Shown here piece after piece: positions 7,675 to 55,419 of a stretch of 64,000 bases of DNA. A model generated the notes under the pieces. That model saw only the letters and a program-made list of their open reading frames with translations. It did not search any database and was not told where the DNA came from. The stretch spans positions 359,504 to 423,503 of the forward strand of contig OY764332.1 of NCBI GenBank assembly GCA_963668425.1. Direction: 5' to 3'. The position numbers were made by a program, and so were the translations under genes. Source of the stretch: Minisyncoccota bacterium. GTDB taxonomy: Bacteria; Patescibacteriota; Minisyncoccia; Phycocordibacterales; JABAAK01. The first letter of the stretch is position 1, and every line of letters begins with the position of its first letter.

Positions 7675-8733
7675 ATGAAAGGTATGCAGTTAGGCACACT
7701 TTTGCCGATTTTTCTCTTCTTTTTACTCTTTGCTGGTATTCTCATTATCTACAGGGAAGAGATAGAAAAGATGGAGCTCTTTGGAAAATTGCACACGTCT
7801 CCGGTTCCCGCAACACGCATTGATCAACCTGCTGTCCCTTCTGCTCCGGTCATCCCACTATCTCTCACTTCTTCTGCGACTACTACATCAGTGTCCAATG
7901 TTCGTGTGATTTCTTTTGGGGATGGGCGTGTTGTTGATTCTACCTTACGTAATATTCCGATTGTTGATTTGCGTGCCGGTGTTGGATCGCTACACACCCT
8001 TTTACCAAACGTCAGTGATTATTACGCTCGAGCGTTTGTTGAAGAGTCGTCCGATTTGTATAATCCGTCTCCACATGTCGGTTCTGTTATTTTTCTTGAT
8101 AGGGTTTCTAATATCAAGGAAACAGACCCAGATCGTGAGTATTTTGTACTTCTTGTATCCAATGCTCTGTCAGCACCTATTACTATCACAGGTTGGAAGG
8201 TGCTTGATCGGCAGGACGGTGTTTCGTATACGTTTTCTCGTGGGGTTAAGGTATTTGGCTCAGGTGATGTTTCCTTGCCGATTGAGGTGTATTCTGGTGA
8301 CAGAATTTTTGTCTCTTCTGGGGATTCTCCGACCAACACTTCGTTTCAGGTGAATAAATGTTCTGGGTATCGTTCTCAGTTTGAGAACTTTACTCCGACC
8401 ATAAAAACATTTTGCTCAGATCCGGTTCAGGATTTTTCGGATTACGGAGATGTCCCTTTTTCTGATGCTGTGTGCTACTCAATGGTTTCCTCTCTTTCGC
8501 CTTGTACGACAGTGCGTACTATTCCTTCTGGTGTTACTGCAAAATGTCGTAGTTTTTTGCAGGACGTTTTGACTGAAAAAGGGTGTGTGTCCCGTCATCG
8601 CAATGATCCTGATTTTTTTACTGGAGAGTGGCGGTTGTTTTTAAAATCGGATAAAGAGATTTGGAAAAATCGTGATAATGTTTTGTATTTACTTGACGAG
8701 AATGACCTTCTCGTCGCCACTCTGGTGTATTAG
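7675..8733 (+). CDS. Membrane-anchored hypothetical protein with a lamin-tail-domain (LTD)-like segment.
   Basis: N-terminal TM. 'EYFVLLVSNALSAPITITGWKVLDRQDGVSYTFSRGVKVFGSGDVSL' matches the LTD pattern (EYIELxN...L.GW.L.D......F). Confidence 0.4.
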   Translation: MKGMQLGTLLPIFLFFLLFAGILIIYREEIEKMELFGKLHTSPVPATRIDQPAVPSAPVIPLSLTSSATTTSVSNVRVISFGDGRVVDSTLRNIPIVDLRAGVGSLHTLLPNVSDYYARAFVEESSDLYNPSPHVGSVIFLDRVSNIKETDPDREYFVLLVSNALSAPITITGWKVLDRQDGVSYTFSRGVKVFGSGDVSLPIEVYSGDRIFVSSGDSPTNTSFQVNKCSGYRSQFENFTPTIKTFCSDPVQDFSDYGDVPFSDAVCYSMVSSLSPCTTVRTIPSGVTAKCRSFLQDVLTEKGCVSRHRNDPDFFTGEWRLFLKSDKEIWKNRDNVLYLLDENDLLVATLVY

Positions 8734-8821
8734 TGCTACAAGTTGTACTACAGGGTCTGTGCACTCTTTTCAAATATTGTACATATTTCGTATTCCTATT
8801 TTTTCTTGATTTGAAAGTTTG

Positions 8822-8852
8822 TTAAAAAATATAAGATGAGGTGGTACATCTT
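8822..8852 (-). terminator. Rho-independent terminator downstream of tRNA-Lys (hairpin ATAAGATG...CATCTTAT followed by a U-run on the minus strand).
   Basis: 8-bp perfect stem with an 8-nt loop; A-run on the + strand (TTAAAAAAT) corresponds to a U-run in the minus orientation. Confidence 0.55.
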
Positions 8853-8863
8853 ATGTTATTGGG

Positions 8864-8936
8864 TCCGCCCACCAGGGCTCGAACCTGGGACCACCGGCTT
8901 AAAAGGCCGTTGCTCTACCAACTGAGCTATGGGCGG
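8864..8936 (-). tRNA. tRNA-Lys (anticodon UUU).
   Basis: Manual fold of the reverse complement: acceptor CCGCCCA/TGGGCGG, U8 A9, D-arm GCTC-AGTTGGTA-GAGC, anticodon stem ACGGC/GCCGG with loop CUUUUAA, T-arm CCAGG-TTCGAGC-CCTGG. CCA is not encoded in the canonical register. Confidence 0.85.
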
Positions 8937-9096
8937 AGTGAGTAGATAGTGAAAGGATACCACAGTATTCTTTCAATTCTACGAATGACAAGTTTATCAA
9001 ACTACGGCTTGATATGGGCGGAGTGAGTAGATAGTGAAAGGATACCACAGTATTCTTTTAATTCTACGAACGACAAGCTTATCAAACTACGGCTTG
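8929..9096. repeat. Tandem direct duplication (2 x 84 bp, about 4 mismatches) covering the 5' end of tRNA-Lys (TATGGGCGG...) and the region immediately upstream of it on the minus strand.
   Basis: Copy 1 is 8929-9012 and copy 2 is 9013-9096. Both begin with TATGGGCGGAGTGAGTAGATAGTGAAAGGATACCACAGTATTCTTT. Confidence 0.85.
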
Positions 9097-9244
9097 CTGT
9101 GTGCAGGGTTTGCTACCACTAGAATGATAGCATTGTTTCTGCTGTTGGCAAATTTATCAGAATATACCACACACTTTTGTCATTTGTATTGATTGCAGTG
9201 ATTTAGTGTTGCTATGTGCTGTTGTATGCGGTATAGTGTTTTTA

Positions 9245-9520
9245 ATGGCTAATACAGCTGCGGCTAAAAAGGCAATGCGCGTTTCTGCGCGGAAGAGGGT
9301 GTTTAACCTGCGTCGTTCGCGTACCATGCGGTCTCTTATGAAGGAGGTTGTTTTGAAGTATCGGAGTGGTGATGCTGAGGGTGCACGCACGCAGTTTCGT
9401 GAAGCACAGCAGGCGATTGACAAGGCGACAAAGCGGGGGGTGATTAAACAGCGGACAGCATCTCGCAGAAAGGCGATGTTGTCTCGGGCAATAAAGCCGG
9501 AGGTGGTAAGCAGTACATAG
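9245..9520 (+). CDS. rpsT: 30S ribosomal protein S20.
   Basis: 'MANTAAAKKAMRVSARKRVFNLRRS...' matches the S20 N-terminus (MANxKSAKKRA). Start taken at the internal ATG. Confidence 0.8.
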   Translation: MANTAAAKKAMRVSARKRVFNLRRSRTMRSLMKEVVLKYRSGDAEGARTQFREAQQAIDKATKRGVIKQRTASRRKAMLSRAIKPEVVSST

Positions 9521-9529
9521 GTGTGTTGT

Positions 9530-9874
9530 ATGGATATGATTGGTATTGAACATTTTTCTTCGGTTGAGATGGTTGTTGGTCGGATTGTGTTTGCTGAGAG
9601 TATGGACGGCTCTGATAAAATGTTGCGATTACTTGTTGATACTGGCGGTCCCAATAGCCGAACCATCCTCTCTGGCATCGCGCAGCACTATACTCCTGTT
9701 TCTCTGATTGGGCGGAAATGTGTTGTTGTGGTAAATTTGCAACCAAAGGACATTATGAATGTTGAGAGTAATGGTATGGTGATATGTGCAACGTACAAGG
9801 ATGGGTTGGGTGATGTCAGTGTACGGTTGATAGAGCCGGCACTTGGAATCCCTGTCGGATCTCGACTGTCGTAG
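9530..9874 (+). CDS. Standalone tRNA-binding OB-fold domain protein (Myf/EMAP/CsaA-like, as found at MetRS C-termini).
   Basis: 'MIGIEHF...VVGRIVFAESMDGSDKMLRLLVDTGGPNSRTILSGIAQHYTPVSLIGRKCVVVVNLQPK' is the tRNA-binding domain signature. Located directly upstream of metG. Confidence 0.6.
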   Translation: MDMIGIEHFSSVEMVVGRIVFAESMDGSDKMLRLLVDTGGPNSRTILSGIAQHYTPVSLIGRKCVVVVNLQPKDIMNVESNGMVICATYKDGLGDVSVRLIEPALGIPVGSRLS

Positions 9875-9903
9875 GTTTTTCTATTTTCTCTTGTTGCGGT
9901 AGT

Positions 9904-11643
9904 ATGGGTAGTATGAAGGGTGTTTCTGAATCAAAGCATGTTTTTGTCGCATCTGCGTGGCCCTATGCGAATGGGTTGTTGCACTTGGGACACATTGCTT
10001 CGCTTGTCGGGGCAGATGTGCTCGCGCGATATCATCGGCTGAAAGGGGATCAGGTATTATTTGTTTCAGGGAGTGATTGTTATGGCACTCCTGTTGCACT
10101 TGAGGCAGTTGCACAAGGTGTTGACCCTGCGTCCATTGCTGATAAGTACCATGCCGAATTTTGTAAATCATTTGATGCACTTTCATTTTCGTTTGATTTA
10201 TACACTAAAACTACCACACTGGAGCACCAAAAGGTAGTGCAAGATATTTTTTTACGTTTATATACATCTGGATATATCTACACCAAAGTTGATAAAGCAT
10301 TGTACTCTCCCGCTCTGCAACGATTTTTGCCGGATCGGTTTGTTGAAGGTGAGTGTCCTCACTGTGGTTTTGATGGTGCTCGAGGTGATCAGTGTGATGC
10401 GTGTGGTACGTTACTTGACTCATTGTTGCTTAAAAATCCTCGTGTTAACTCCAAGATGTTTGTAGGACAAGATGCTTCTGTTGACCAATCTCTTGAGGTG
10501 CGTGAGTCGGAACATTTTTATTTAAAACTTACCGCGTTTCAAGATGTGTTGGAGCAGTGGGTTGGTTCTGTGAGTGATTCATGGCGAGTACAGGCAGCAC
10601 AATTTACGAAAGGTTTTCTAAAGCAGGGGTTACATGATCGTGCTATTACACGAGATACTGATTGGGGGGTTCCAATACCGGTTGACGGCTATGATGATAA
10701 GCGGATATATGTGTGGTTTGAGGCAGTGTTGGGGTATTTGTCCGCGGCAATGCACTGTTGTCATGATCGGGGAGATGCTGCTGGTTGGAAGCAGTGGTTT
10801 TTTTCCGATGATGCGGTGCATTATTACGTACACGGTAAGGATAATGTGCCGTTTCATAGTATTATTTTGCCGGCGATTTTGAAAGGTGCAGGTACATATC
10901 ACTTACCGGATATGTTGTTTTCTTCGGAATATTTATCCCTTGAGGGAAAACAACTTTCTACTAGTCGCGGGTGGGCGATATGGGTTTCTGATTTTCTTGA
11001 GCAGTTTGATTCTGAGTTGTTGCGGTATTATATGTTGGCGCATGGTCCTGAGACCTCCGATACTGATTTTCGTTGGTCTGAATTTGGGCAGAGGGTGAAT
11101 GGGGAGTTGATCGGCACTTTTGGTAATTTGGTACATAGGATATGCTCATTTACACAGAAAAATTTTCCTGATGGAGTTTCCTTCAATGGTGAGGTTGATG
11201 ATTTTTCAAAGCAGCTACTTTCTGGTGCTGAGGGGGCGTTTGCTCTTGTTGGTGCACACATAGAATCTGGGCAGTTTCGGCAAGGGTTTCGTGAGGTGTT
11301 AAGGGTTGCTGAGGAGGCAAATCGTTTTGCACATACCAAGGAGCCATGGAAGCATTTGGATGATGTGGCTCGTGTTCAGACCGATCTTTCCGTGTTGTTG
11401 CATACTATTCGCACTCTTTCGGTCTTGGTGCAGCCGTTTTTGCCGAGGACTTCCGTTAAGATACAAGGTTTTTTTGGTTCTGATAGTATTGAGAGCACGT
11501 CTTGTGTTTCCCATGCACTTTCCACTTGGCGTTATTCTGAATTACCAAAAACTTTTACTTTGCAGGAGATTGAACCACTTTTTCAGAAGGTTGAAGATGA
11601 CGTGATACAGAAGCAGCAAGAAATATTACGTGCGCGTGGGTGA
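9904..11643 (+). CDS. metG: Methionyl-tRNA synthetase.
   Basis: 'WPYANGLLHLGH' (HIGH region), zinc knuckle 'CPHCGFDGARGDQCDACG', KMSKS-region 'GKQLSTSRG', and an anticodon-binding C-terminal domain. Confidence 0.9.
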   Translation: MGSMKGVSESKHVFVASAWPYANGLLHLGHIASLVGADVLARYHRLKGDQVLFVSGSDCYGTPVALEAVAQGVDPASIADKYHAEFCKSFDALSFSFDLYTKTTTLEHQKVVQDIFLRLYTSGYIYTKVDKALYSPALQRFLPDRFVEGECPHCGFDGARGDQCDACGTLLDSLLLKNPRVNSKMFVGQDASVDQSLEVRESEHFYLKLTAFQDVLEQWVGSVSDSWRVQAAQFTKGFLKQGLHDRAITRDTDWGVPIPVDGYDDKRIYVWFEAVLGYLSAAMHCCHDRGDAAGWKQWFFSDDAVHYYVHGKDNVPFHSIILPAILKGAGTYHLPDMLFSSEYLSLEGKQLSTSRGWAIWVSDFLEQFDSELLRYYMLAHGPETSDTDFRWSEFGQRVNGELIGTFGNLVHRICSFTQKNFPDGVSFNGEVDDFSKQLLSGAEGAFALVGAHIESGQFRQGFREVLRVAEEANRFAHTKEPWKHLDDVARVQTDLSVLLHTIRTLSVLVQPFLPRTSVKIQGFFGSDSIESTSCVSHALSTWRYSELPKTFTLQEIEPLFQKVEDDVIQKQQEILRARG

Positions 11644-36463: not shown

Positions 36464-37915
36464 ATGCTTGTGGTTTATACTGTTTTCAAGATGTCTACTC
36501 CTAATTTCAAGCCGAATACACTCTTCACGAGAGATAATTTGTATATTTTGCGTGGCATGAACAGTGAGTGTGTTGACTTGATATATCTTGATCCGCCATT
36601 TAATTCAAAAAAAAACTATGTTGCACCTTTGCCTGTGAAGGATGAAGAAATACTTGCCTCATTCAAGGATGTATGGAAACTCATTGATATTGATGAAGCG
36701 TTGCATGAGGAATTGCAGGAGACTCAGCCATGTTTGTATGAGATTATTAAGGGTGTTGAAGCAGCACACTCCAAGGCGATGTTTTCATACTTGATATACA
36801 TGACCATGCGACTGGTTGAAATGCATCGTGTGCTAAAACCAACAGGAAGTATATTTCTGCACTGCGATCCAACGGCAAGCCACTACTTAAAAATAGTGAT
36901 GGATTGTATTTTTGGAAAGAGTAATTTTAGAAATGAGATTATTTGGTGTTACGGTGAAACGGCCAGAGGTGCAAAGGCAAAAGCCAGTCAGTTTGCACGA
37001 AATAATGATGTGATACTTTTTTACGGAAAAACAAGTCAACATCTCTTTAACAAAACATATTTTGAAAGGAAAATAAAGTTTGAGGGGTCAGGGTATCAGC
37101 GGGAGGATGATGGACGATGCTTTAGAACAGCACCACGAGGCGATTATACAGATGACAGTATTGAAAGGTTAAGAAGGGAAGGTAGGATTTATGAGACAAG
37201 AAACGGGACTATACGCATTAAATATCATGAAAAATGTGATGAAACCTTTGTGTATGAAAAAAAACTTTTTGGTAATGTTTGGTCAGATATACCTGATATG
37301 ATGCACGCAGAAGAGATAGAAAAAACCGGCTATTCAACTCAAAAGCCGTTAAAACTATTACAGCGAATCATCAATACAGGTAGCAAAAAAGGTGGTTGGG
37401 TACTTGACCCATTCTGTGGATGTGCAACTACCATGGTTGCCGCAGAAAAACTGGGGAGGAAGTGGGTTGGCATTGATGCCTCTCATTTTGCAAAATTTTT
37501 TGTTAAAAGCAGAATGGAAAAAGAATTGGAGAAAAAAATTCCTTTTATTTTTCTCAAGGATATATCTGGTAGGCAGTTCAGTGATGAAAAAGAATTGAGT
37601 GATTGGGAAAATAAGAAAAGGATGTATGAAGAGCAGGAAGGTGTATGCAATGGATGCGTTGGTCATTATCATGAAAAAGATATGACTATTGACCATATCA
37701 TACCAACATCAAAGGGCGGTCAAGACACACAAGATAACAAGCAATTACTTTGTTTTCACTGTAACACGACAAAGGGGACAGGAACAATGCCAACGCTATG
37801 GCAAAAACTTGCAAAAGGGCATGTATTGGAGTATCACGAAGCGGATAAACTCATACAAGAGCACAAAGACAGAAAAAAGAAACTTGAAAAAGAGTATGGA
37901 ACTAAAACACTATGA
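36464..37915 (+). CDS. DNA methyltransferase (beta-class N6-adenine/N4-cytosine type, motif IV before motif I) fused to a C-terminal HNH endonuclease domain.
   Basis: 'DLIYLDPPFNSKKNY' (DPPF catalytic motif) near the N-terminus and 'VLDPFCGCATTMVAAEKLGRKWVGID' (SAM-binding motif I) near residue 315. C-terminal 'CNGCVGHYHEKDMTIDHIIPTSKGGQDTQDNKQLLCFHCNTTKG' is a Zn-finger HNH motif. Confidence 0.8.
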   Translation: MLVVYTVFKMSTPNFKPNTLFTRDNLYILRGMNSECVDLIYLDPPFNSKKNYVAPLPVKDEEILASFKDVWKLIDIDEALHEELQETQPCLYEIIKGVEAAHSKAMFSYLIYMTMRLVEMHRVLKPTGSIFLHCDPTASHYLKIVMDCIFGKSNFRNEIIWCYGETARGAKAKASQFARNNDVILFYGKTSQHLFNKTYFERKIKFEGSGYQREDDGRCFRTAPRGDYTDDSIERLRREGRIYETRNGTIRIKYHEKCDETFVYEKKLFGNVWSDIPDMMHAEEIEKTGYSTQKPLKLLQRIINTGSKKGGWVLDPFCGCATTMVAAEKLGRKWVGIDASHFAKFFVKSRMEKELEKKIPFIFLKDISGRQFSDEKELSDWENKKRMYEEQEGVCNGCVGHYHEKDMTIDHIIPTSKGGQDTQDNKQLLCFHCNTTKGTGTMPTLWQKLAKGHVLEYHEADKLIQEHKDRKKKLEKEYGTKTL

Positions 37916-43608: not shown

Positions 43609-43953
43609 ATGGCGAATACTAAAAAGCCCGCAAAAGGGTCACATATCAACAAGTTACGCATTCGTGTACAGGCGTATGAACCGAGAATATTGGACTCTTC
43701 TGTGAAGCAGATTATAGAAACAGCGACACGGCTTGAGACAGAGATTGCTGGCCCTATTCCACTTCCGACTAAGATCAAGAAACATTCAGTTAATCGTGCT
43801 TCATTCATCTTCAAATCCTCTCAGGAGCAGTTTGAGATGCGTACACACACTCGCCTCATTGATATTAAGCATCCATCACCGCAGGTGATAGAGGCACTCA
43901 GCAATCTTTCGTTGCCGGCTGGGGTGTCTATTGAGGCACGAATGCTTTCATAA
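43609..43953 (+). CDS. rpsJ: 30S ribosomal protein S10.
   Basis: 'RIRVQAYEPRILDSSVKQIIETATRLETEIAGPIPLPT...EMRTHTRLIDI' is canonical S10. First gene of the S10 operon after tuf. Confidence 0.85.
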   Translation: MANTKKPAKGSHINKLRIRVQAYEPRILDSSVKQIIETATRLETEIAGPIPLPTKIKKHSVNRASFIFKSSQEQFEMRTHTRLIDIKHPSPQVIEALSNLSLPAGVSIEARMLS

Positions 43954-43962
43954 GCAATCAAT

Positions 43963-44526
43963 ATGAAATTCGTATTAGGTAGAAAATTACAAATGACACA
44001 GCTGTTTGATGAGAACGGTGTTGTGCGACCAGTGACTGTTGTTGCACTTGAGCCGTTGGAGGTTTCGTTATGTCGCACTGACGAGCGAGATGGTTATGAG
44101 GCGGTGCAGGTTCAGTATGGCGATGGCAAGAGAAAGCAGCAGAGAAAAGAATTCAGAGGTGATACTTCGTCGTATAAGGTTGGAGAATCTATACATAGTG
44201 TTGAGGTTTTCAGCCCCGGGGATGTGGTGCGAGTGAGTGCTCAATCAAAAGGGAAAGGATTTCAAGGAGTTGTGAAACGTTACGGATTTGCTGGTGGACC
44301 GAGAACACACGGACAGAAGCATAATGAGCGGCAACCTGGCTCTATTGGATCTGGGTTGCGAAACCGTGTCCCAAAGGGGACTAAGATGGGTGGGAGAATG
44401 GGTGGTGATCGAGTAACTGCTCGCGGAACGCAGGTGATTTCTATTGATAAGGAGCGTGGATTGTTGCTATTGCAAGGTTCTATTCCTGGTAGGCGAGGTA
44501 CTCTTGTTGAAATTCAAGGCGTATGA
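43963..44526 (+). CDS. rplC: 50S ribosomal protein L3.
   Basis: 'GRKLQMTQLFDENGVVRPVTVV...GKGFQGVVKRYGFAGGPRTHGQ' matches L3. Confidence 0.85.
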   Translation: MKFVLGRKLQMTQLFDENGVVRPVTVVALEPLEVSLCRTDERDGYEAVQVQYGDGKRKQQRKEFRGDTSSYKVGESIHSVEVFSPGDVVRVSAQSKGKGFQGVVKRYGFAGGPRTHGQKHNERQPGSIGSGLRNRVPKGTKMGGRMGGDRVTARGTQVISIDKERGLLLLQGSIPGRRGTLVEIQGV

Positions 44527-45224
44527 TAGAGGTACCAATCTACAAACAGGACGGTAGTAAAAAGGGAGTAGCCCAACTTCCTGAACACTTGTTTACCCTT
44601 CCATGGGTAGATGCACTGGTGCATCAGGTGGTAGTTGGTATTGCGAGTAATCAGCGATCTGCTACCGCACACACGAAAGGTCGTTCTGAGGTTCGAGGTG
44701 GTGGGCGGAAGCCATGGCGACAGAAGGGGACTGATCGAGCGCGGCATGGGTCTATTCGGTCTCCACTATGGGTTGGAGGCGGTGTTACTTTTGGCCCGAA
44801 TAAGGAGAAGAAATACGCAAAGTCAATTAATAAAAAAATGCGAGCACAAGCATTTTTTATTGTACTGTCTCAAAAGATGCGCAATGGTGTACTTGCATTT
44901 GTTGATGACTTTGCTATGGAGATGCCGTCAACAAAAACCGCGGTGACTTGTATTGAAAAGATATGTGGTGAGCCGGTAGAGAAGAGAAAGAATATTTGTA
45001 CTGTGGTGTTCTCGGAACGTGATGCGGTGTTGCGAAAGAGTTTCGCTAATATACAGGGTGTAAACACTGTTGCATTAGAGGCGTTTAATGTTAAAGATGC
45101 GTTACGTGCGCGGAAAATTCTTTTTTTGGATTCAGAGAAGTCCATTGATTATCTGAAAAATCGTGGTGGAAGTATGCAGCAGCAAGTGGATGGACATAAC
45201 ACAAAACATAATACAGACGTATGA
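44523..45224 (+). CDS. rplD: 50S ribosomal protein L4.
   Basis: Operon position, ATGA overlap with rplC, and 'SNQRSATAHTKGRSEVRGGGRKPWRQKGTDRARHGSIRSPLWVGGGVTFGP'. Confidence 0.85.
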   Translation: MIEVPIYKQDGSKKGVAQLPEHLFTLPWVDALVHQVVVGIASNQRSATAHTKGRSEVRGGGRKPWRQKGTDRARHGSIRSPLWVGGGVTFGPNKEKKYAKSINKKMRAQAFFIVLSQKMRNGVLAFVDDFAMEMPSTKTAVTCIEKICGEPVEKRKNICTVVFSERDAVLRKSFANIQGVNTVALEAFNVKDALRARKILFLDSEKSIDYLKNRGGSMQQQVDGHNTKHNTDV

Positions 45225-45769
45225 TTTTTGATCGACTATTTAAGAGAAAAAAGGATTCGGTATCGGATCAGCAAGCCACACAGGATGATGATGTGCAGGC
45301 AACTGCATTGCATGAGGAGTATGGTGGCGATGTGTCTCCATTGACTGAACAGTTCACAAAGAAAACGAAGCAGGATAAAAAGAACACTGCGTTAGACAGA
45401 AAGCGAAAGAGACGGTCAAATAGGGTGGTGCACACAAAGCGATCATTTCATCGTGGAGAGCGGCATGAAGCGGGGCGTGTGAATGTGTATGATGTTATTG
45501 AGCGACCAGTCATCACTGAAAAAGCAGCGAATCAGTCCGAGGGCGGGGTGTATACTTTTCTTGTGCGCGGAAGTGCGAATAAGTATGCTATTGCGGATGC
45601 TATTGAGGTGCTGTACGGTGTGCGACCAAAGAAGGTTCGGATTGCAAAACGTCCTTCAAAAAGAAAGCGTATTCGTATTTCTGGAAAGGAGCGTGAATAT
45701 GGTATGACAACACAGAAGAAGAAGGCGTACGTGTTTCTGCGTGAAGGTGATACTATCAAGTTAACATAG
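45221..45769 (+). CDS. rplW: 50S ribosomal protein L23 with a ~90-aa basic N-terminal extension.
   Basis: The C-terminal 90 aa 'VYDVIERPVITEKAANQSEGGVYTFLVRGSANKYAIADAIEVLYGVRPKKV' is L23. ATGA overlap with rplD. No internal ATG to shorten it. Confidence 0.75.
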   Translation: MIFDRLFKRKKDSVSDQQATQDDDVQATALHEEYGGDVSPLTEQFTKKTKQDKKNTALDRKRKRRSNRVVHTKRSFHRGERHEAGRVNVYDVIERPVITEKAANQSEGGVYTFLVRGSANKYAIADAIEVLYGVRPKKVRIAKRPSKRKRIRISGKEREYGMTTQKKKAYVFLREGDTIKLT

Positions 45770-47380: not shown

Positions 47381-48052
47381 ATGACACATTCATCACATCC
47401 TTATGGTTTTAGATTAGGCATTACCCGGGACTGGCGTACCCAGTGGTTTGCTAGTGATCGCAAAAAGTATCAGTCGCTGTTGCGGGAGGATTACTATATT
47501 CGCACTTTTCTTGAGAAAGATCTGAGTAGTAAGATGGTGAGTAGTATTTTGTTTGAGCGGGAGCGGGATACCTTAGTTATTACTATTAAGACCGCTCGTC
47601 CAGGACTTATTATTGGTAGAGAGGGTGCCGGTATTGAAGATTTAATACTTCGTGTGAAACATCTTGCTCGCAAACGTGCCTTGAATGATGATATTAAGAT
47701 ACGTGTTGAGGAGGTTCGGTATGTTGAGCAGGATGCTATGCTGGTTGCTGAGTCAATCGTTGAGTCGCTTAAGCGGTATATGCATCCGCGCCGCTTGATA
47801 AAGCACACTGTTGAGAAAGTTATGGCAAATCGGAATGTGCGTGGGTGTCGGATTACTATCTCGGGGCGGTTAGGAGGTGCTGAGATTGCCCGGACTGAGA
47901 GTGTTAAAAAGGGGAGTATACCGTTGCAGACCCTGCGTGCTGATATAGATTATGCACAGAAAGAGGCCGTTCTTTCATACGGCACACTTGGTATCAAGGT
48001 TTGGATATACAAGGGGGATATTGAGAGAGAAAAAAAAGAAGATAAAGGGTAG
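47381..48052 (+). CDS. rpsC: 30S ribosomal protein S3.
   Basis: 'GFRLGITRDWRTQWFA', KH domain, 'GREGAGIEDL'. Confidence 0.85.
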   Translation: MTHSSHPYGFRLGITRDWRTQWFASDRKKYQSLLREDYYIRTFLEKDLSSKMVSSILFERERDTLVITIKTARPGLIIGREGAGIEDLILRVKHLARKRALNDDIKIRVEEVRYVEQDAMLVAESIVESLKRYMHPRRLIKHTVEKVMANRNVRGCRITISGRLGGAEIARTESVKKGSIPLQTLRADIDYAQKEAVLSYGTLGIKVWIYKGDIEREKKEDKG

Positions 48053-48053
48053 T

Positions 48054-48470
48054 ATGTTGTTTCCTAAGAAGGTAAAATATCGTAAATTTCAGCGGATGCG
48101 GAGTTTTCTCGGCAATAGGAATGCTGGTCGTGGTGCTACTGTTGTTTTTGGTACCTATGGCATGAAGGCGATGTCTCAAAAGCGGGTTCGTTCTAATCAA
48201 ATAGAGGCGGCGCGGAAAGTTATTGTGCGGACGCTCGGGAAGACCGGTCGGGTGTGGATTCGCATTTTTCCTGATCGTCCATGGACGCAGAAAGCAGCTG
48301 AAATGGGTATGGGTAAAGGGAAGGGAGACCCGCAAGGGTTTGAGGTTGAGGTTTTGCCGGGGCGAGTTTTGTTTGAAGTGTCGGGTGTTTCGGAGGATGT
48401 GGCGCGGAGCGCTATTGTGCAGGCGGGAAAGAAGTTGCCGGTGAAGGTAAAGCTTGTTACCAAGGTGTAG
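48054..48470 (+). CDS. rplP: 50S ribosomal protein L16.
   Basis: 'MLFPKKVKYRKFQRMRSFLGNRNAGRG...' canonical L16. Start at the ATG one nt after the rpsC stop. Confidence 0.85.
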   Translation: MLFPKKVKYRKFQRMRSFLGNRNAGRGATVVFGTYGMKAMSQKRVRSNQIEAARKVIVRTLGKTGRVWIRIFPDRPWTQKAAEMGMGKGKGDPQGFEVEVLPGRVLFEVSGVSEDVARSAIVQAGKKLPVKVKLVTKV

Positions 48471-48607
48471 CCCTTATCTGTCTGTGTATGAAATATGTTT
48501 GTTGCTATTTATTATTGGTAAGTAGTTGAGTGTATGTTCTTGATGGTTGTTGTGTGTAAAAAAATAATATGCGGCTTTGTGGTGGTTTTCCAAAGCCGCA
48601 ATTTATG

Positions 48608-49213
48608 TTACTTGTATAGGTTGAGTTCGGTGAGGAGATGGATCGCGTTATTGAAGACATCTTTCGGTAAGGGTATGTTTCTATCCGCCGCATGCCTCTT
48701 GATGTCTGAGATAGTACGTTCTATCGGTAGATTGTTCGGTTGGTGGTGGCTATGTAGCAGATGAGTTGCGACTGAAAGAGCGTGCCAATCTTTGCCGCTC
48801 GGATGCTCGTTGACTTGATCAATAACCCCTTGCCATCTCTTGAAATCGGGGTTGTTGGTGGTGAGGTATCGGTCTTCAATTTGTTCACAGGAAAGTGTTA
48901 CAAGTTTTTGGCGTAATTCACCACAATAGTTTTCTGTGCCTTCACTTTCCTTATTTACTATCTTTGCGAGATCAAACCATCCTATCATTCTTATTCTGTC
49001 TTGTATGAAATTGCTAGCTATGCCGCCGGTATGGTTCTGACTGAATCCGAATAGGTCAAGTTTGCGCATTTTCTCTACCAAGTAGCATTTCTTGGTTAGG
49101 TACGGAAATCCAAATAATCCCTCATTGCCCTCTGATCTTATAATTTCCAGCAGGACGGTTAGGGTGTAGGATGTGGATGTCTCTCCAAAAGAGTTGAACC
49201 TTTCAAATTTCAA
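48608..49213 (-). CDS. Hypothetical protein (201 aa) encoded antisense within the ribosomal-protein gene block, between rplP and rpmC. Family not recognised.
   Basis: TTG start preceded by a strong SD (TAGGAGGT, 7-nt spacing). Its own terminator hairpin GCGGCTTTG..CAAAGCCGC plus a U-run at ~48557-48599. Cytoplasmic-looking and His-rich (HLLHSHHQ). Confidence 0.5.
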   Translation of the reverse strand: MKFERFNSFGETSTSYTLTVLLEIIRSEGNEGLFGFPYLTKKCYLVEKMRKLDLFGFSQNHTGGIASNFIQDRIRMIGWFDLAKIVNKESEGTENYCGELRQKLVTLSCEQIEDRYLTTNNPDFKRWQGVIDQVNEHPSGKDWHALSVATHLLHSHHQPNNLPIERTISDIKRHAADRNIPLPKDVFNNAIHLLTELNLYK

Positions 49214-49574
49214 TATCGTAACCTCCTATGTAAAAGTGTTCAGTACTGTATTGGGTCTTTGTCAAGTATACCATATTTAGTTCCTTTGCCTTGAATGTAA
49301 ATAGCTACGTTGCCATTGGTATATAAAAGGCGATATTTGCATGATGTTTGGTTAGAGGAAATGCCTGTTGCCAGTACTGTTGTCCGAAAGCAGGTTGCTC
49401 TGTGTGGTGGTGCATGAAATGAGGTGGTAGGTGTGTGGGTTTTTGCTACTGGGTGTGGTAGTATGGAAATGTATGGTGAAGAAACGTGTTAGTAGCACGA
49501 AAAAGGAAATGACGGATCTCTCTTCTGGTGATGCTAAGAAGGCAACTGCCTCGCAACGCAAGAAAGCGTCAAAA

Positions 49575-49769
49575 ATGCCAAAGGTAATGAAGAAGGAGGA
49601 TTTAGTTGAGCAGATGCATAAGCACAAGAAAGGAGTGCAGGAGATGCGGTTTGGGCTTTCTAAAGAGGGGCAGCAGAAAGGTGATTCCCGTCAGAATTTG
49701 CGTAAGCAGATTGCTCGGACGGCGACACAGTTGACTGCGTTGCGAAAAAATGATGGTGTACGTGCGTGA
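49575..49769 (+). CDS. rpmC: 50S ribosomal protein L29. Start uncertain; upstream in-frame starts at 49509 or 49473 would add a basic N-terminal extension.
   Basis: 'MKKEDLVEQMHKHKKGVQEMRFGLSKEGQQKGDSRQNLRKQIARTATQLTALRK' is the L29 pattern. AAAGGA SD before the 49509 ATG. Confidence 0.6.
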   Translation: MPKVMKKEDLVEQMHKHKKGVQEMRFGLSKEGQQKGDSRQNLRKQIARTATQLTALRKNDGVRA

Positions 49770-49832
49770 TACTTGGTGTCGCGTAAAAATTGTATTTGTG
49801 CCATACTGTATGTATCTTATATACCTTTGTAT

Positions 49833-50081
49833 ATGGAAGAGAAAAAGAACAGAAAAACGTTGCGTGGGGTAGTGGTTTCAGACAAGATGCAGGACACTGT
49901 TGTAGTGGCAGTTGATAGGTATGTGCGACATCCTGTGTATGGCAAGTATCGGCGTATAACCAAGCGGTATAAAGCACATTGTCCGGGGAGTGATGTCCTT
50001 ATGGGTGAGCAGGTGGTCATAGAGTCGTGTCGACCTATTTCAAAAGAAAAGCATTTCCAAATAATTTCTGAGAACATATGA
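49833..50081 (+). CDS. rpsQ: 30S ribosomal protein S17.
   Basis: 'KTLRGVVVSDKMQDTVVVAVDRYVRHPVYGKYRRITKRYKAHC' is canonical S17. Start at the internal ATG. Confidence 0.85.
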   Translation: MEEKKNRKTLRGVVVSDKMQDTVVVAVDRYVRHPVYGKYRRITKRYKAHCPGSDVLMGEQVVIESCRPISKEKHFQIISENI

Positions 50082-50449
50082 TACAGCCACAGACCATTGT
50101 AAAAGTAACTGATAACTCGGGTGCAAAGATTGCGCGAGTGTTTAAGGTCTTGAGAGGGAGTAAGCGGCGGTATGCGCGGATTGGTGATGAGGTGGTGTGT
50201 GCGGTGCAGATTGCGGAACCTCGGAAAGAGGTGAAAAAGAAACAGGTGGTACATGCAGTGGTGGTGCGGCAGCGGAAGCCGTTTCGTCGGGAGGATGGGT
50301 CATATGTTTCTTTTAGCGAGAATGCGGTTGTGGTGGTGGATAGTAAAAAGAAAGAGCCGTTATCAACCCGTGTTTTTGGTCCGGTGCCGCGGGAGCTTGA
50401 AAAGGTTGGGTATGGCAGAATAACTTCTATGGCACCTGAGGTGGTGTAA
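50078..50449 (+). CDS. rplN: 50S ribosomal protein L14.
   Basis: 'MIQPQTIVKVTDNSGAKIARVFKVLRGSKRRYARIGDEVVCAV' is canonical L14. Confidence 0.9.
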   Translation: MIQPQTIVKVTDNSGAKIARVFKVLRGSKRRYARIGDEVVCAVQIAEPRKEVKKKQVVHAVVVRQRKPFRREDGSYVSFSENAVVVVDSKKKEPLSTRVFGPVPRELEKVGYGRITSMAPEVV

Positions 50450-50461
50450 TACAATACTATT

Positions 50462-50815
50462 ATGAAAATACATACTGGAGATATCGTGACTGTGTGCAAG
50501 GGCGTTGACCGTGGTAAGGAAGGTGCTGTTTTGCGTGTGTTGCAGGAGAGTGGCAAGGTTGTGGTTGCTGGTGTGAATATTCGTACCTTCCATAGGAAGC
50601 CACAAGCCGGCGAGGAAAAAGGTCGTATTGAAAAGAAAGAGGCGCCTATTGATTGTTCTAATGTGATGTTGCTTGATCCATCAGATAAGCAGCGGACGCG
50701 AGTTGGTTACACTGGGCTTGGTCGGGAAAAGAAGCGAATTGCTACGCGTACTGGTGCCGTGCTTAAAAATATTTCTAAGAAAAAGAAGAGTGCTTCTGTT
50801 CAAGAAAAAGTATAA
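50462..50815 (+). CDS. rplX: 50S ribosomal protein L24.
   Basis: 'MKIHTGDIVTVCKGVDRGKEGAVLRV...' KOW motif. Confidence 0.85.
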   Translation: MKIHTGDIVTVCKGVDRGKEGAVLRVLQESGKVVVAGVNIRTFHRKPQAGEEKGRIEKKEAPIDCSNVMLLDPSDKQRTRVGYTGLGREKKRIATRTGAVLKNISKKKKSASVQEKV

Positions 50816-50817
50816 TT

Positions 50818-51360
50818 ATGACTATAGTAGAGACAAAAATGAATAGTGCATTTGAAACATTGAAAACTTTGTTTCAATGGAAGAATGCTATGCAGGTGCC
50901 GAGAGTTGAGAAGGTTGTTATTTCAGTTGGTGTTGGGCGTGTGCGTAAAGATAAACAACGGATTGACTTAATACAGGATCGTTTGGCGAAGATTGCCGGG
51001 CAGAAGGTGGTTCCTCGAAAAGCGAAGAAATCCATTGCCTCTTTTAAGTTGCGGGATGGTGAATGTGTCGGATTTATGACTACTTTGCGTGGCAAAAAAA
51101 TGTATGCGTTTTTGGATAAGTTTATCAATGTTGCTATTCCCCGGACACGTGATTTTCGTGGCATACCAAGGCATTCCGTTGATGAGGTGGGTAATTTGAC
51201 TATCGGTGTGTCTGAACATACGATATTTCCTGAGACACCAGATGAAAACTTGCAGGATATTTTTGGCATGTCGGTAACTGTTGTTACCACGGCTCAGGAT
51301 AGGGAAGAGTCGTTGGCATTTTTGCGACACATTGGTGTACCTTTTGTTGATGCGAGTTAG
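50818..51360 (+). CDS. rplE: 50S ribosomal protein L5.
   Basis: 'NAMQVPRVEKVVISVGVGR...DFRGIPRHSVDEVGNLTIGVSEHTIFPE' is canonical L5. Confidence 0.85.
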   Translation: MTIVETKMNSAFETLKTLFQWKNAMQVPRVEKVVISVGVGRVRKDKQRIDLIQDRLAKIAGQKVVPRKAKKSIASFKLRDGECVGFMTTLRGKKMYAFLDKFINVAIPRTRDFRGIPRHSVDEVGNLTIGVSEHTIFPETPDENLQDIFGMSVTVVTTAQDREESLAFLRHIGVPFVDAS

Positions 51361-51509
51361 TGTTGTATTTGTGGTGTTGATTTATCTGTTTTTGATATAC
51401 GTGCCACCTATCATATTTTTTATTTTTGTCCAGTTTCCACAGATTTGATTTTGTTGTTGTGTGGGCGGGTGTTTTGGTGGTGCTATGGGTGTGTACACTA
51501 CTGTTGTTT

Positions 51510-52589
51510 ATGAGTGATATTGTGTTGCCATCTGGGTATCATTTTGGGTCGGTACCTTCGTCACCAACTGTGGCTGGTGACGGTGTTATTGCTGATATTA
51601 CTGATAGTGATGATGAACCGTTGTTGCGGGAGAATAAAGATCGGTTTGTCTTGTTTCCTATTGAGCATAATGATATTTGGGAGTTTTATAGACATGCGGT
51701 GGCGAATTTTTGGGTGCCGGAGGAAGTAAATTTTTCTGACGATATCAGTCACTGGCAGGAGCGGCTGAGTGATAATGAACGGCATTTTGTTAAGCATATT
51801 TTAGCGTTTTTTGCGGCTTCTGATGGGATTGTGAATGAGAATTTAGCAGAGGACTTTTTGGAGCGAGTGCAGTATACAGAGGCAAAATTTTTTTATGGGT
51901 TCCAAATTGCGGTTGAGAATATTCATTCGCACACCTATTCGTTGTTTATTGATACGTATATAAAAGATAGGTCCGAGCAGGATTATTTGTTACATGCCGT
52001 TGAAACAGTTCCATCGGTGAAAAAGAAGGCGGATTGGGCGTTGCGGTGGATTGAGCGGGGGAGTTTTGTGGAGCGTTTAGTCGCGTTTGCTATTGTTGAA
52101 GGTATTTTCTTTTCAGGGAGTTTTTGTTCTATTTTTTGGTTGAAACACCGAGGATTGATGCCGGGGTTGTCGTTTGCGAATCAGTTGATTTCTCGGGATG
52201 AGGGATTGCATCGTGATTTTGCGTGCTTGTTGTATCGTGATCATATTGAGCAGCAGATGCCGCGGGAGAAACTGATATCTGTTATACAGGAGGCGGTCGC
52301 ACTGGAGAAGGAGTTTGTTACAGAGTCGTTGCCGGTGCGGTTAATTGGTATGAATGCTGATAAGATGTCACAGTATATTGAATATGTGACAGATCACTTG
52401 TTGGTGGAGATGGGGTTGGAGAAGCTGTTTAATGCCTCCAATCCGTTTGATTTTATGGATATGATTTCGTTGGAGGGTAAGACGAATTTTTTTGAGCGGA
52501 GGGTGTCGGAGTATCAGAAGGCAGGTGTGGCAACTGGTGGTGAACAGGAAACCGCGCGGCTGGACTTTAATTTAGATCAGGATTTTTAG
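51510..52589 (+). CDS. nrdB: Ribonucleotide reductase class I small subunit (R2).
   Basis: '[29 protein letters not shown]', di-iron ligand contexts ([24 protein letters not shown]), and a C-terminal R1-binding tail ending '...DF'. Start moved to the ATG 'MSDIVLP', because the listed start is a TTG. Confidence 0.85.
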
Positions 52590-52590
52590 T

Positions 52591-55035
52591 ATGATGTATG
52601 TTCTTAAAAGAAGTGGAGAGCGGGAAGAAGTGCGGTTTGATGCCGTTTTGGAGCGAATTTCCGCGTTGACTGATGGTTTGGATAAGAGGTTTATTGATCC
52701 GGCGGAGATCACACAGCGAGTTGTTGATGGTTTGTATGATGGGATTAAGACAACTGATTTGGATGAGTTGGCGGCACAGGTGTGTGCATCTATGGCGACG
52801 GTGCATTTTGATTTTGCTCGTCTGGCGGCGCGAATTGCTATCTCTAATTTGCACAAGGAGACACATGCTTCTTTTTCTGAGACGGTGAAGAAATTGCATG
52901 CCTATGTTGAGCCGCGGACGGGATTGCATGCGCCGTTTGTGTCTGATGAGTTGCTTGAGTTGGTTACATTGCACGGTGAAAAAATAGATGCAGCGATTGA
53001 TCACAGTCGGGATTATGAGATGTTTGACTATTTTGGTATCAAGACCTTAGGGAAGGGATATCTCATGTCGTTTGGTGATGTTCCGGTTGAGCGACCGCAG
53101 CATATGTTTATGCGGGTTGCACTTGGGATACATGGTAGTGACTTTGATGCGGTGTTTGAGACCTATGATCATCTTTCTTTGAAGGATTTTACGCATGCCA
53201 CACCGACATTATTTAATGCAGGTACACCACTGCCGCAGATGAGTTCGTGTTTTTTGGTGGCGATGTCGGATGATAGCATTAAGGGGATTTATAAAACGTT
53301 GTCTGATGCTGCATTAATTTCACAGCATGCGGGTGGTTTGGGTATCAATGTACACAATGTTCGCGCAAAGGGGAGTTTCATTGCTGGATCTCGTGGATAC
53401 TCTAATGGATTGGTGCCAATGTTGCGAAATTTTAATGAAACAGCTCGATATGTTGACCAAGGGGGTGGTAAACGGAAAGGGGCATTTTGTGTGTATCTTG
53501 AGCCGTGGCATGCTGATGTGTTTGACTTTCTTGATTTGCGGAAAAATCATGGAGCAGAGGAGATGCGGACACGAGATTTGTTTTTGGGGTTGTGGATTCC
53601 TGATGAGTTTATGCGGCGTGTTGAGGTGGATGGTGAGTGGACACTGATGTGTCCGAAGGAGTGTCCGGGGTTGTATACCTCTCATGGGGAGGAGTTTGAG
53701 TCGCTGTATCGTCGGTATGAACAGGAAGGACGGGGACGTAAGACCATAAGAGCGCGGGATTTATGGCATACCATTATTGATTCGCAGATAGAAACAGGCA
53801 CACCGTTTATGCTGTATAAGGATTCGGCGAATCGGAAGTCCAATCAGAAGAATTTGGGGACGATTCGCAGTAGTAATTTGTGTACTGAAATTATTGAATA
53901 TTCTGATGAGAAGGAGACAGCGATGTGTAATTTGGCATCTATTTGTGTGAATAAATTTGTTCAGCCGGATGGATCATATGATTTTAAGCGGTTACATGCT
54001 GTGACAAAGGTGGCGTGTCGTAACCTGAACAAGGTGATTGATCGAAACCATTATGTGGTACCGGAGTCGTCATACTCTAATTTGCGGCATAGACCTATTG
54101 GTATCGGAGTGCAGGGGCTTGCTGATGCGTTTGCTTTATTGAAGTACTCGTTTGATGAGTCGCGAGCACGGGAGTTGAACAAAAGTATTTTTGAGACAAT
54201 TTATCACGGAGCAGTTGAGGCGTCTATTGAGTTGGCGAAGAAGGATGGAGCATATGAGACCTTTGCAGGATCTCCCGCATCTGAGGGGAAGTTTCAGTTT
54301 GATTTATGGGGAGTGATTCCTGATTCTGGATTGTGGGACTGGGAGGCAGTCCGGAAAGAAATGATTGAGCATGGTTTGCGGAATTCGTTGTTTTTGGCAC
54401 CGATGCCAACAGCGACGACGGCGCAGATATTTGGTAATAATGAGTCGGTGGAGCCGTTTACTTCTAACTTGTATGTGCGGCGAGTGTTGTCTGGAGAATT
54501 TATTGTGATCAATAAGCATTTGTTGCGGGATTTACAGGAGTTGGGTATTTGGAATGAGGATATGCGTATGCGGTTGATTGCTGCGCGCGGTTCAGTGCAG
54601 GATATTGTGGAGATTCCTGAGGAGGTGCGGCAGAGGTATCGTACGGTATGGGAGATATCACAACGGCATATTGTTGATATGGCAGCTGATCGAGGTCCAT
54701 ATATTTGTCAGAGTATGAGTTTGAATATTCATATGCGGGATGCGACTGCCGGGAAGTTGACTGCGTTACATTTTCACACATGGAAGCGTGGGTTGAAGAC
54801 CGGAATGTACTATTTACGTAATACGCCGGCTGTTGAGGCGGTGCAATTTACTGTTGATAAAACAAAGGTTGAAGGTGGTGTGGTGCAAAAAGTACGTGAT
54901 TCTGATGTTTCAGACGTGCCCTCATCGGTGACGGAGGTGGATTTGGCACAGGAGGTTGAGGAAGAGGTTGCTTCGGTGACGGCTTCTGGAGGAGATGATG
55001 AAGATAAGAATATGTGTATCTCTTGTGGGTCTTGA
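52591..55035 (+). CDS. nrdA: Ribonucleotide reductase class Ia large subunit (R1) with an N-terminal ATP-cone.
   Basis: ATP-cone 'MYVLKRSGEREEVRFDAVLERISAL'. Active-site regions 'NLCTEI' and 'PMPTATTAQIFGNNESVEPFTSNLYVRR'. C-terminal Cys pair 'CISCGS'. Confidence 0.9.
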   Translation: MMYVLKRSGEREEVRFDAVLERISALTDGLDKRFIDPAEITQRVVDGLYDGIKTTDLDELAAQVCASMATVHFDFARLAARIAISNLHKETHASFSETVKKLHAYVEPRTGLHAPFVSDELLELVTLHGEKIDAAIDHSRDYEMFDYFGIKTLGKGYLMSFGDVPVERPQHMFMRVALGIHGSDFDAVFETYDHLSLKDFTHATPTLFNAGTPLPQMSSCFLVAMSDDSIKGIYKTLSDAALISQHAGGLGINVHNVRAKGSFIAGSRGYSNGLVPMLRNFNETARYVDQGGGKRKGAFCVYLEPWHADVFDFLDLRKNHGAEEMRTRDLFLGLWIPDEFMRRVEVDGEWTLMCPKECPGLYTSHGEEFESLYRRYEQEGRGRKTIRARDLWHTIIDSQIETGTPFMLYKDSANRKSNQKNLGTIRSSNLCTEIIEYSDEKETAMCNLASICVNKFVQPDGSYDFKRLHAVTKVACRNLNKVIDRNHYVVPESSYSNLRHRPIGIGVQGLADAFALLKYSFDESRARELNKSIFETIYHGAVEASIELAKKDGAYETFAGSPASEGKFQFDLWGVIPDSGLWDWEAVRKEMIEHGLRNSLFLAPMPTATTAQIFGNNESVEPFTSNLYVRRVLSGEFIVINKHLLRDLQELGIWNEDMRMRLIAARGSVQDIVEIPEEVRQRYRTVWEISQRHIVDMAADRGPYICQSMSLNIHMRDATAGKLTALHFHTWKRGLKTGMYYLRNTPAVEAVQFTVDKTKVEGGVVQKVRDSDVSDVPSSVTEVDLAQEVEEEVASVTASGGDDEDKNMCISCGS

Positions 55036-55328
55036 CTCGGGTATCCGTTGTACACTTTTTTACCGTAAGCGGCACTCCACAATCTTTCTTTTGTAGGGGG
55101 AGATAAGCAGGAACTCCCAACAAAAGAAAATTGTTCCGTACCATAGATTTGTTGCTTGTTCAACGTGTACCTCTCGCATGTGGGTTGGGCGATATTTGGT
55201 TGGTGTTGGGTTGAATGGGGTGCTTGTCGCGGGTACTGTGTTTGGTTAAACGGGGTGATCTTCACTGGGTAAATATTGCCTGTGTTCTGCGTACTTATTT
55301 TTGTTTATTTTGATGGTAGTATGCAGAT

Positions 55329-55366
55329 GTAGGGTTGATAGGTGTATACACCCTACAAGATTTTTT
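55329..55366 (+). terminator. Hairpin GTAGGGT-TGATAGGTGTATACA-ACCCTAC followed by TTTTTT, ~290 nt downstream of nrdA.
   Basis: 7-bp stem containing an inner palindromic GGTGTATACACC, followed by a T-run. Confidence 0.5.
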
Positions 55367-55419
55367 ACGAGAGACGACTGTTAGTGCTTTGGTGTAGGCA
55401 CTCGGATATTTCGTCTCAA

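Follow-up and report, generated by a model that had tools for sequence, protein, structure and literature searches.

The ribosomal gene cluster and the rplP/rpmC junction

The window analysed here (the whole stretch of 64,000 nucleotides) carries a ribosomal gene cluster on the plus strand, with a 201-aa minus-strand gene, hereafter the orphan gene, between rplP and rpmC. According to the ORF list and the Pfam labels of syntenic loci, the upstream block reads rpsJ-rplC-rplD-rplW-rplB-rpsS-rplV-rpsC-rplP and the downstream block rpmC-rpsQ-rplN-rplX-rplE. The first of these starts with rpsJ at 43609 and includes tuf in the same unit (tuf/rpsJ...rplP), and the cluster stops after rplE, where ribonucleotide reductase genes follow. 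The non-ribosomal segment between the blocks spans 48471-49472 (1002 nt), and the features found in and around it are given in Table 1. These results indicate that the orphan gene cuts the S10-spc supercluster in two, the upstream part (tuf/rpsJ-rplP) ending at a hairpin shared with the orphan gene.

Table 1. Coordinates of the features at the rplP/rpmC junction, as positions in the window
Feature	Position	Strand	Basis
rplP (L16), last gene of the upstream unit	48054..48470 (start most likely)	+	Pfam Ribosomal_L16, E 8.8e-38
Probable intrinsic terminator common to the convergent rplP and orphan gene	48558..48599	.	RNA fold, pattern search, conservation
Orphan gene, 201 aa, TTG start, TAA stop	48608..49213	-	ORF list and homologues
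Shine-Dalgarno site AGGAGGT of the orphan gene	49221..49227	-	Sequence; 7 nt 5' of TTG
Conserved 5' leader of the orphan gene	49228..49264	-	Upstream sequences of compared loci
Extended -10 of the orphan gene, TATGGTATACT (TGn-TATACT)	49265..49275	-	Single match in the window
Spacer between the two divergent promoters	49276..49455	.	Upstream-region comparison
Extended -10 of rpmC-rplE, TGGTAGTAT	49456..49464	+	Motif search; 8 nt before ATG 49473
rpmC (L29), 98 aa, Lys-rich N-terminal extension	49473..49769	+	Pfam Ribosomal_L29
rpsQ-rplN-rplX-rplE, remainder of the downstream unit	49773..51360	+	ORFs; Pfam labels in syntenic loci

The start of rplP was placed most likely at the ATG at 48054, because the Ribosomal_L16 match begins only at residue 38 of the longer ORF 47952-48470; in relatives, L16 has 138 aa. 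The Ribosomal_L29 match of rpmC covered residues 39-88 with an E-value of 0.0013, under the gathering cutoff. Its N-terminal extension is conserved as protein in loci L007 and L001, and L012 has a 98-aa gene call at the same position.

We then compared the sequences upstream of rpmC. The element TGGTAGTAT was found 6-8 nt 5' of the L29 ATG in every relative, and a Shine-Dalgarno site was absent from the rpmC upstream region, so that rpmC shows the pattern of a leaderless extended -10 start (TGnTAnnnT 6-9 nt before the start, without Shine-Dalgarno). Since the element lies just 8 nt before the rpmC ATG in the window, this spacing implies that rpmC-rplE is transcribed as a leaderless mRNA. Across the window, TGNTANNNT occurred 7-9 nt before the ATG of long ORFs in 11 cases, compared to about 1 per other spacing. 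It therefore appears that this genome normally also starts genes on leaderless mRNAs made from extended -10 promoters.

On the minus strand, the GGAGG core of the orphan gene's Shine-Dalgarno site was kept in all relatives when upstream sequences were compared. The motif TATGGTAYAMT (core TGGTAYAMT) stands at a constant distance from the gene in the loci with ribosomal context, two of which (L001 and L009) carry the variant -10 TATGATATACT, without the TG. The leader, about 45 nt long from the predicted transcription start, contains in most relatives an inverted repeat (CTCAAT-N4-6-ATTGAG) just 3' of the -10. Because this repeat is degenerate in the window, as it is in L008, and the RNA folds of the leader showed no significant stability (z -0.5 to -2.8), we make no claim for an RNA element or an operator. 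Of the loci read, just the window and L008 had about 120 nt of the spacer between the two promoters; no function was found for the spacer, and Rfam gave no match in 47500-50500 at E ≤ 1.

Downstream of the orphan gene, a hairpin with 9-bp arms (GCGGCTTTG-N11-CAAAGCCGC, 48571-48599) starts 8 nt past the stop codon. It is followed on the minus strand by ATATTATTTTTTT; read on the plus strand, the corresponding T-tract of the minus-strand gene is an A-run/TAATAT stretch at 48558-48570 that precedes the hairpin, and AATTTATGTT, a weak T-tract, comes after it. The predicted fold had an energy of -18.2 kcal/mol (z = -5.4; no shuffle equalled it), and the hairpin pattern occurred once in the window, where 0 occurrences were expected. 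The hairpin 3' of the orphan gene was kept in every one of the 10 loci, L010 showing a compensatory exchange of C and G; in the window and L002 it is the single hairpin between the rplP stop and the orphan gene, and the plus-strand terminator scan also flagged it. A GC-rich hairpin, a U-tract and conservation in relatives, as expected of an intrinsic terminator, were thus all found at this site. Flanked by an A-tract and, at its other end, by a T-rich stretch, the shared hairpin probably terminates both the rplP-side and the orphan-gene transcripts, and a strong hairpin common to both strands argues for insulation and against collision of convergent transcription, which an earlier note had raised as a possible means of regulating ribosomal-protein expression. 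As the plus-strand T-tract is weak, a part of the rplP transcripts may run on, antisense to the orphan gene, into rpmC.

Much of this had been anticipated in the same note, which described a complete antisense gene with TTG start, its own Shine-Dalgarno site and a terminator, splitting a ribosomal block of otherwise universal order, and which held that rpmC-rplE must have its own promoter. The AGGAGGT site and the hairpin bear out the first point, the ORFs, the Pfam labels in syntenic loci and the L16 and L29 scans the second, and the conserved TGGTAGTAT before the L29 ATG the third. The note also placed the antisense gene correctly in the gap; the extent of the segment needs correction, as rpmC starts at 49473 and not at about 49575, so that the segment ends at 49472.

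Conservation and distribution of the gene family

A search of 5.8 billion proteins returned 11 relatives of the orphan protein, and a profile search extended the family to 18 members, with no match to anything more distant. A phmmer, filter-only HMMER scan of 1.84 billion cluster representatives recovered 3 family members, and the family was present in 1 of 185,579 species representatives. No member was found in IMG/VR, JGI metagenome contigs or GenBank phages. The window protein had no match in Pfam, NCBIfam or PADLOC at E ≤ 10, in agreement with the earlier view that the product fits no sequence family, and none of the 18 members had a Pfam match at that threshold. The sole PHROGs match (phrog_8145, E 0.073) was dismissed as noise, and PDB sequence searches with the family profiles gave nothing relevant. 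The protein family is thus undescribed and extremely narrow, whereas the phenomenon in general, like the predicted fold, is of a kind already known.

The alignment of the 18 full-length homologues contains 27 invariant columns. In 7 pairwise comparisons, the dN/dS of the gene ranged from 0.07 to 0.34, with dS saturated between subclades, which indicates purifying selection. The GC content of the gene is 43.1%, compared to 44.5% for the window.

We located the gene antisense at the rplP/rpmC junction in nine loci (the window, L012, L008, L007, L001, L009, L002, L005 and L011), one of which lies on a chromosome of 661 kb that bears the label Candidatus Paceibacterota. Among the nine, protein identity falls to about 40%, and in eight of them the gene is adjacent to and divergent from rpmC. 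The most distant members, L004 and L010, have the gene between an AmiA-like gene and an MreB gene, away from ribosomal genes, with two tandem copies in L004. True Panacea (DUF4065) genes occur in antisense orientation in L001 and L005, at the second break of the cluster, which separates rplE from the ribonucleotide reductase genes.

As an outgroup, we used 80 metagenomic loci in which L16 shares 58-68% identity with that of the window; 67 of these also contain rplN. In all 67 of these related CPR loci, the distance from the rplP end to the rplN start was 254-963 nt, compared to 1607 nt in the window, and therefore leaves no room for a 600-nt gene beside rpmC and rpsQ. Since the gap is too small throughout this set, the split is a derived trait of one small clade. 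Together with the nine loci, this comparison indicates that the gene has been at the rplP/rpmC junction of a small Candidatus Paceibacterota clade since before the clade diversified. A recent horizontal insertion was ruled out by the native GC content and the conserved synteny.

The earlier note had called for such a comparison of rplP-rpmC junctions, and its outcome (the gene in nine loci, no room in 67 others) agrees with the note's judgement that the arrangement is unusual. Its word "inserted", which suggests a recent event, does not fit a gene of native GC that has been kept in the clade down to about 40% identity. The note had also stated that its reading would fall if relatives carried the gene as a ribosome-associated factor of known function; of this, conservation in relatives was found, and a factor of known function was not. 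Taken together, these results indicate that the locus is a genuine, clade-restricted, monocistronic gene with its own promoter, leader, strong Shine-Dalgarno site, TTG start and terminator.

Predicted fold and candidate roles of the product

The AF2 model of the product, built on an 11-sequence alignment, had a pLDDT of 81.4 and a pTM of 0.81, with 2 of 5 models confident. In this model, a winged helix at the N-terminus (helices 14-27, 35-50 and 68-79; strands 83-87 and 103-107) is followed by a C-terminal helical bundle (residues 111-196). The pI lies between 5.1 and 7.8 in 17 of the 18 family members. From these data we infer a soluble protein of near-neutral pI in which a winged helix packs against a helical bundle. 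The description of the product as His-rich applies modestly (9 of 201 residues, 4.5%). In the family, conservation is limited to H151 and H154, and the HSHH run is unconserved. A HEPN identity, the spacing for which the earlier note had raised and already discounted, was rejected: no conserved Rx4-6H motif is present, and the predicted fold is a winged helix with a bundle.

Searching with Foldseek, we obtained a single full-length match, 7yk3_B (TM 0.60/0.63, probability 0.98); no viral structure matched at E ≤ 0.001. PDB 7YK3 is the DarTG complex of M. tuberculosis, in which the C-terminal domain of the antitoxin DarG neutralises DarT by sequestration (PMC7003065). The fold of this toxin-binding domain was found in the predicted model, and we infer that the architecture of the orphan protein matches it. 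A Macro domain was not detected by Pfam, and the model consists of the winged helix and bundle only.

DUF4065 (Panacea) proteins have been reported as homologous to the DarG C-terminal domain in a 2026 paper (PMC13621843), a link that stands on a marginal E-value in that one paper; our narrow Panacea profile did not find 7YK3 in the PDB. Panacea is a promiscuous antitoxin or sensor domain (PMC8832971, PMC10440598), built as a compact helical domain with two strands (PMC10440598) and carrying a conserved GPV motif (PMC8832971), and about half of Panacea proteins were undetected in conserved two-gene (toxin-antitoxin-like) loci (PMC8832971). We compared the family with Panacea by hhalign, using profiles of low power (6-7 sequences each, from same-lineage Panacea proteins and one phage member). 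Against these narrow profiles, the probability was 0.2-0.3% and the E-value 0.25-0.33, and only the signature helix region was aligned (LtKKCYLvE with LLKLLYLVDR, GasS with GPVS). The alignment to the Panacea signature helix (KLxKLLYL) is thus suggestive and not significant. The GPV signature itself is absent: the aligned position reads G-[AIVT]-[ASTF]-S, without Pro, and S67 alone is invariant. A true Panacea protein, modelled by AF2 as a control, reached a pLDDT of 39, too low for a direct comparison of the folds.

We also scanned the neighbourhood of the gene for a toxin. No adjacent DarT gene was found in 11 contexts, nor was a DarT gene or any toxin family found among the 30 window ORFs scanned, and the neighbours in L001, L004 and L010 had no match to a toxin or defence family. 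An adjacent toxin partner was therefore rejected, as the contexts have no conserved small ORFs and the neighbours scanned lack toxin and defence matches. A two-gene operon with a toxin was likewise not found, the gene being monocistronic and its neighbours varying between loci. Because the sequence tests were negative and no toxin lies beside the gene, we describe the protein as one that resembles the DarG C-terminal domain/Panacea scaffold and do not file it as a Panacea member.

We tentatively favour the view that the product is a stand-alone protein-binding module of antitoxin type at a tolerated break-point, while giving this somewhat less than an even chance. Such a product would work by binding another protein, as neutraliser or sensor, and would be neither an enzyme nor a classical DNA-binding repressor. 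As no toxin gene is adjacent, it would act as a solo module from its own promoter. Its site beside the ribosomal genes would be a tolerated break-point that also collects variable cargo, with no ribosomal function implied. Against this, the gene is in most loci tightly paired with rpmC in divergent orientation, which could instead mean a regulatory link.

That link is the core of the main rival explanation, in which the product is a winged-helix factor of PadR/MarR type that binds the 260-nt divergent promoter region and controls its own and possibly the rpmC-rplE promoter. The position beside rpmC in eight of the nine ribosomal-context loci favours it, as does the conserved leader with its inverted repeat just 3' of the gene's -10 in most relatives. 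However, the repeat is degenerate in the window and L008, and helix 68-79, the would-be recognition helix, varies among the members and lacks conserved basic residues, even though the loci share a similar repeat. Pfam gave no PadR or MarR match for the window protein or for the 18 members, the pI is near neutral to acidic, and the best and sole full-length structural match is a protein-binding antitoxin domain. Moreover, L011 has another gene before rpmC, and L004 and L010 are far from ribosomal genes. On balance we regard regulation by DNA binding as rather unlikely; if true, the clade would have a dedicated switch for the second half of its ribosomal cluster.

The junction itself is variable. 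The orphan gene stands alone between rplP and rpmC in three loci (the window, L012 and L002), and in six others (L001, L005, L007, L008, L009 and L011) it is separated from rplP by extra genes that lie on the ribosomal strand. This cargo comprises a 250-aa unknown protein, 370-400-aa beta-propeller-like proteins and Amidase_3/FlgD_ig proteins of about 500 aa, and in L005 it includes an IS1595 transposase. L008, whose orphan protein is 90% identical to that of the window, and L012 come from one sample and represent strains about 90% identical, and they differ by a 523-aa cargo gene. The orphan gene keeps the rpmC-proximal edge in all ribosomal-context loci but L011, in which the insertion of a 396-aa membrane/propeller gene came with second copies of the rpmC promoter and of the first ~13 rpmC codons. 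These results indicate that the rplP/rpmC junction is a hotspot of cargo turnover.

The same observations allow the gene to be read as a passenger of a variable islet, for example an immunity or regulatory protein for cell-envelope cargo, with the window as a remnant after cargo deletion. The cargo in six loci, the transposase, the difference between close strains of one sample and the AmiA-like amidase genes found within a few genes of the family members in L004 and L010, whose contexts are non-ribosomal, are all in its favour. Against it, purifying selection acts on the gene where cargo is absent (the window, L012 and L002), and the cargo lies on the opposite strand, varies in content and offers no constant neighbour. 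We consider a passenger role unlikely.

A further reading, in which the protein is a clade-specific switch on an antitoxin-like scaffold that couples leaderless rpmC-rplE expression to the upstream S10 unit, seems improbable to us. The coupling could act through protein binding at the divergent promoters, or read-through from rplP, a highly expressed gene, across the weak plus-strand side of the terminator could silence the gene and re-join the ribosomal units. Ultra-small bacteria are not known to have the classical leader-based feedback for the rpmC-rplE unit, and such a switch, if real, would be a previously undescribed control of ribosomal-protein stoichiometry in these organisms.

Still less probable, in our judgement, is a lineage-specific factor that associates with ribosomes or takes part in their assembly and that has stayed in the cluster for co-regulation. 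Throughout the clade the gene keeps its place within the ribosomal cluster, and the ribosomal proteins of this lineage do carry unusual extensions (L23 182 aa, L29 98 aa). However, the gene runs opposite to the ribosomal genes and has a promoter and a terminator of its own, which means that it is not co-transcribed, and its product has a near-neutral pI compared to the basic pI typical of ribosomal proteins. It is missing from the 67 related CPR loci and from all but 1 of the 185,579 species representatives, its most distant members stand outside the ribosomal context, with a tandem duplication in L004, and none of the Foldseek matches to ribosome factors exceeded the generic winged-helix matches. 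Finally, that ORF 48608-49213 is a chance open frame in non-coding spacer, as the absent family match and a public annotation (P0002) calling just a 126-aa fragment might suggest, is excluded for practical purposes by the 18 full-length homologues with their invariant columns, the low dN/dS despite saturated dS between clades, the conservation of the Shine-Dalgarno site, promoter and terminator alike, and the confident predicted fold.

Significance and comparison with known systems

Few gene arrangements of bacteria are as conserved as the S10-spc ribosomal cluster, which also forms the backbone of the marker sets used to place uncultured lineages. A stable antisense cut within it in one clade shows that the rplP-rpmC link is dispensable once rpmC gains its own leaderless promoter. 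The split and this promoter would be a curiosity for those who work on CPR genomes and by themselves open no major question. The orphan gene defines an undescribed family of 18 sequences without a Pfam model. If the resemblance to the DarG C-terminal domain and Panacea holds, that scaffold would also occur in reduced-genome symbionts, as a solo form fixed in the chromosome. In practice the findings are of modest value: the orphan family receives an annotation, a rule for promoters and leaderless starts is available for this genome, and a site of frequent cargo turnover is marked.

Compared to known systems, the protein is closest in predicted structure to the DarG C-terminal domain of PDB 7YK3, with a sequence identity of 11%, a relation that the sequence search did not detect. 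DarG itself is a two-domain antitoxin whose N-terminal macrodomain has ADP-ribosyl glycohydrolase activity, and it is accompanied by a DarT gene, whereas the orphan protein stands alone and lacks both. The signature helix of the Panacea/SocA/DUF4065 domain (PF13274), KLxKLLYL, resembles LTKKCYLVE at the equivalent position of the orphan protein; a Pfam match at E ≤ 10, the GPV motif and an adjacent toxin are all absent from the orphan gene. PadR/MarR regulators align over about 85-100 residues, but the orphan protein is not basic and its recognition helix is unconserved. In gene order, the canonical S10-spc supercluster is unbroken; its universal order is preserved here on both sides of the orphan gene, whereas the cluster is cut at rplP/rpmC by the antisense gene and again after rplE.

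Genes at the second break of the ribosomal cluster

In the window, rplE was the last ribosomal gene of the cluster and was directly followed by the class I ribonucleotide reductase (RNR) genes; rplE and the RNR genes together span 50818-55035. The remaining spc operon genes (rpsN, rpsH, rplF, rplR, rpsE, rplO and secY) were absent from the 64-kb window. The break after rplE was also kept in six relatives carrying the orphan gene between rplP and rpmC (L001, L002, L005, L008, L009 and L012). In L001 and L005, a bona fide SocA_Panacea (PF13274) gene lay antisense between rplE and the RNR genes, and no counterpart was found in the window at 51361-51425. Since the orphan gene occupies one break and Panacea genes the other, either break-point of the ribosomal cluster can carry an antisense antitoxin-type gene in this lineage. 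A 73-aa ORF followed the Panacea gene in L001.

Several ribosomal proteins of the window (L23, L29 and L4) were lengthened by extensions. Additionally, an N6_N4 DNA methyltransferase-HNH endonuclease fusion gene preceded tuf in two loci, at a distance of about 5 kb in the window (36464-37915) and immediately upstream in the relative L007 (8547-9169).

Features and regions in the window and in related loci (L numbers)
Feature	Locus	Coordinates	Strand
SocA_Panacea (PF13274) gene	L001	5288-5713	antisense
SocA_Panacea (PF13274) gene	L005	5430-5984	antisense
Class I RNR small subunit gene	window	51426-52589	
Class I RNR large subunit gene	window	52591-55035	
Orphan-family copies	L004	7268-7915 and 8001-8747	
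Regions compared for 523-aa gene indel	L008 vs L012 and window	8726-10297 vs 9625-9762 and 48471-48607	
396-aa membrane/beta-propeller gene between orphan gene and rpmC	L011	446-1636	(-)
Region compared with 396-aa gene for duplicated rpmC start	L011	107-364	(-)
ATG starts with TGNTANNNT (examples)	window	2344, 5281, 7675, 11784, 12861, 23879, 24980, 35897, 38064, 49473	
ATG start with TGNTANNNT (example)	window	14122	(-)
GTG start with TGNTANNNT (example)	window	62014	
L23, 182 aa, N-terminal extension about 90 aa	window	45221-45769	
L29, 98 aa, Lys-rich N-terminus	window	49473-49769	
L4 with C-terminal tail	window	44523-45224	

Insertion and duplication around the orphan gene

Strains of sample ERZ21861969 differed by the presence of a gene for 523 aa that separates rplP from the orphan gene, and the orphan proteins of these strains were about 90% identical. 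The similarity between the window and L008 stopped about 33 nt beyond the terminator T-tract; that point marks an indel breakpoint. On the rpmC side, the 396-aa gene inserted in L011 starts with MTKKRTVKKVKGGD and is preceded by TGTGGTAGTAT-N8-ATG, which together duplicate the promoter of rpmC and roughly the first 13 codons of that gene; the 396-aa gene apparently acquired its promoter and start through this duplication. In L004, the most distant genome (1.1-Mb contig), two tandem copies of the orphan family adjoined an N6_Mtase/Eco57I gene, and both copies were followed by the same terminator type, GCGGCTTTGA...TCAAAGCCGC.

Extended -10 motifs and probable leaderless starts

Across the window, the extended -10 motif TGNTANNNT ended 7-9 nt before the start codon of many genes, with 11 cases at this spacing versus about 1 at each other spacing. 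This concentration suggests, from motif position, that many genes of this Paceibacterota genome are expressed from leaderless mRNAs. Beyond the end of the gene for the RNR large subunit, TGGTAGTAT occurred in a second intergenic copy (55314-55375), followed within about 10 nt by the hairpin GTAGGGT...ACCCTAC and then a T-run; this arrangement could yield a transcript of very short length or act like an attenuator.
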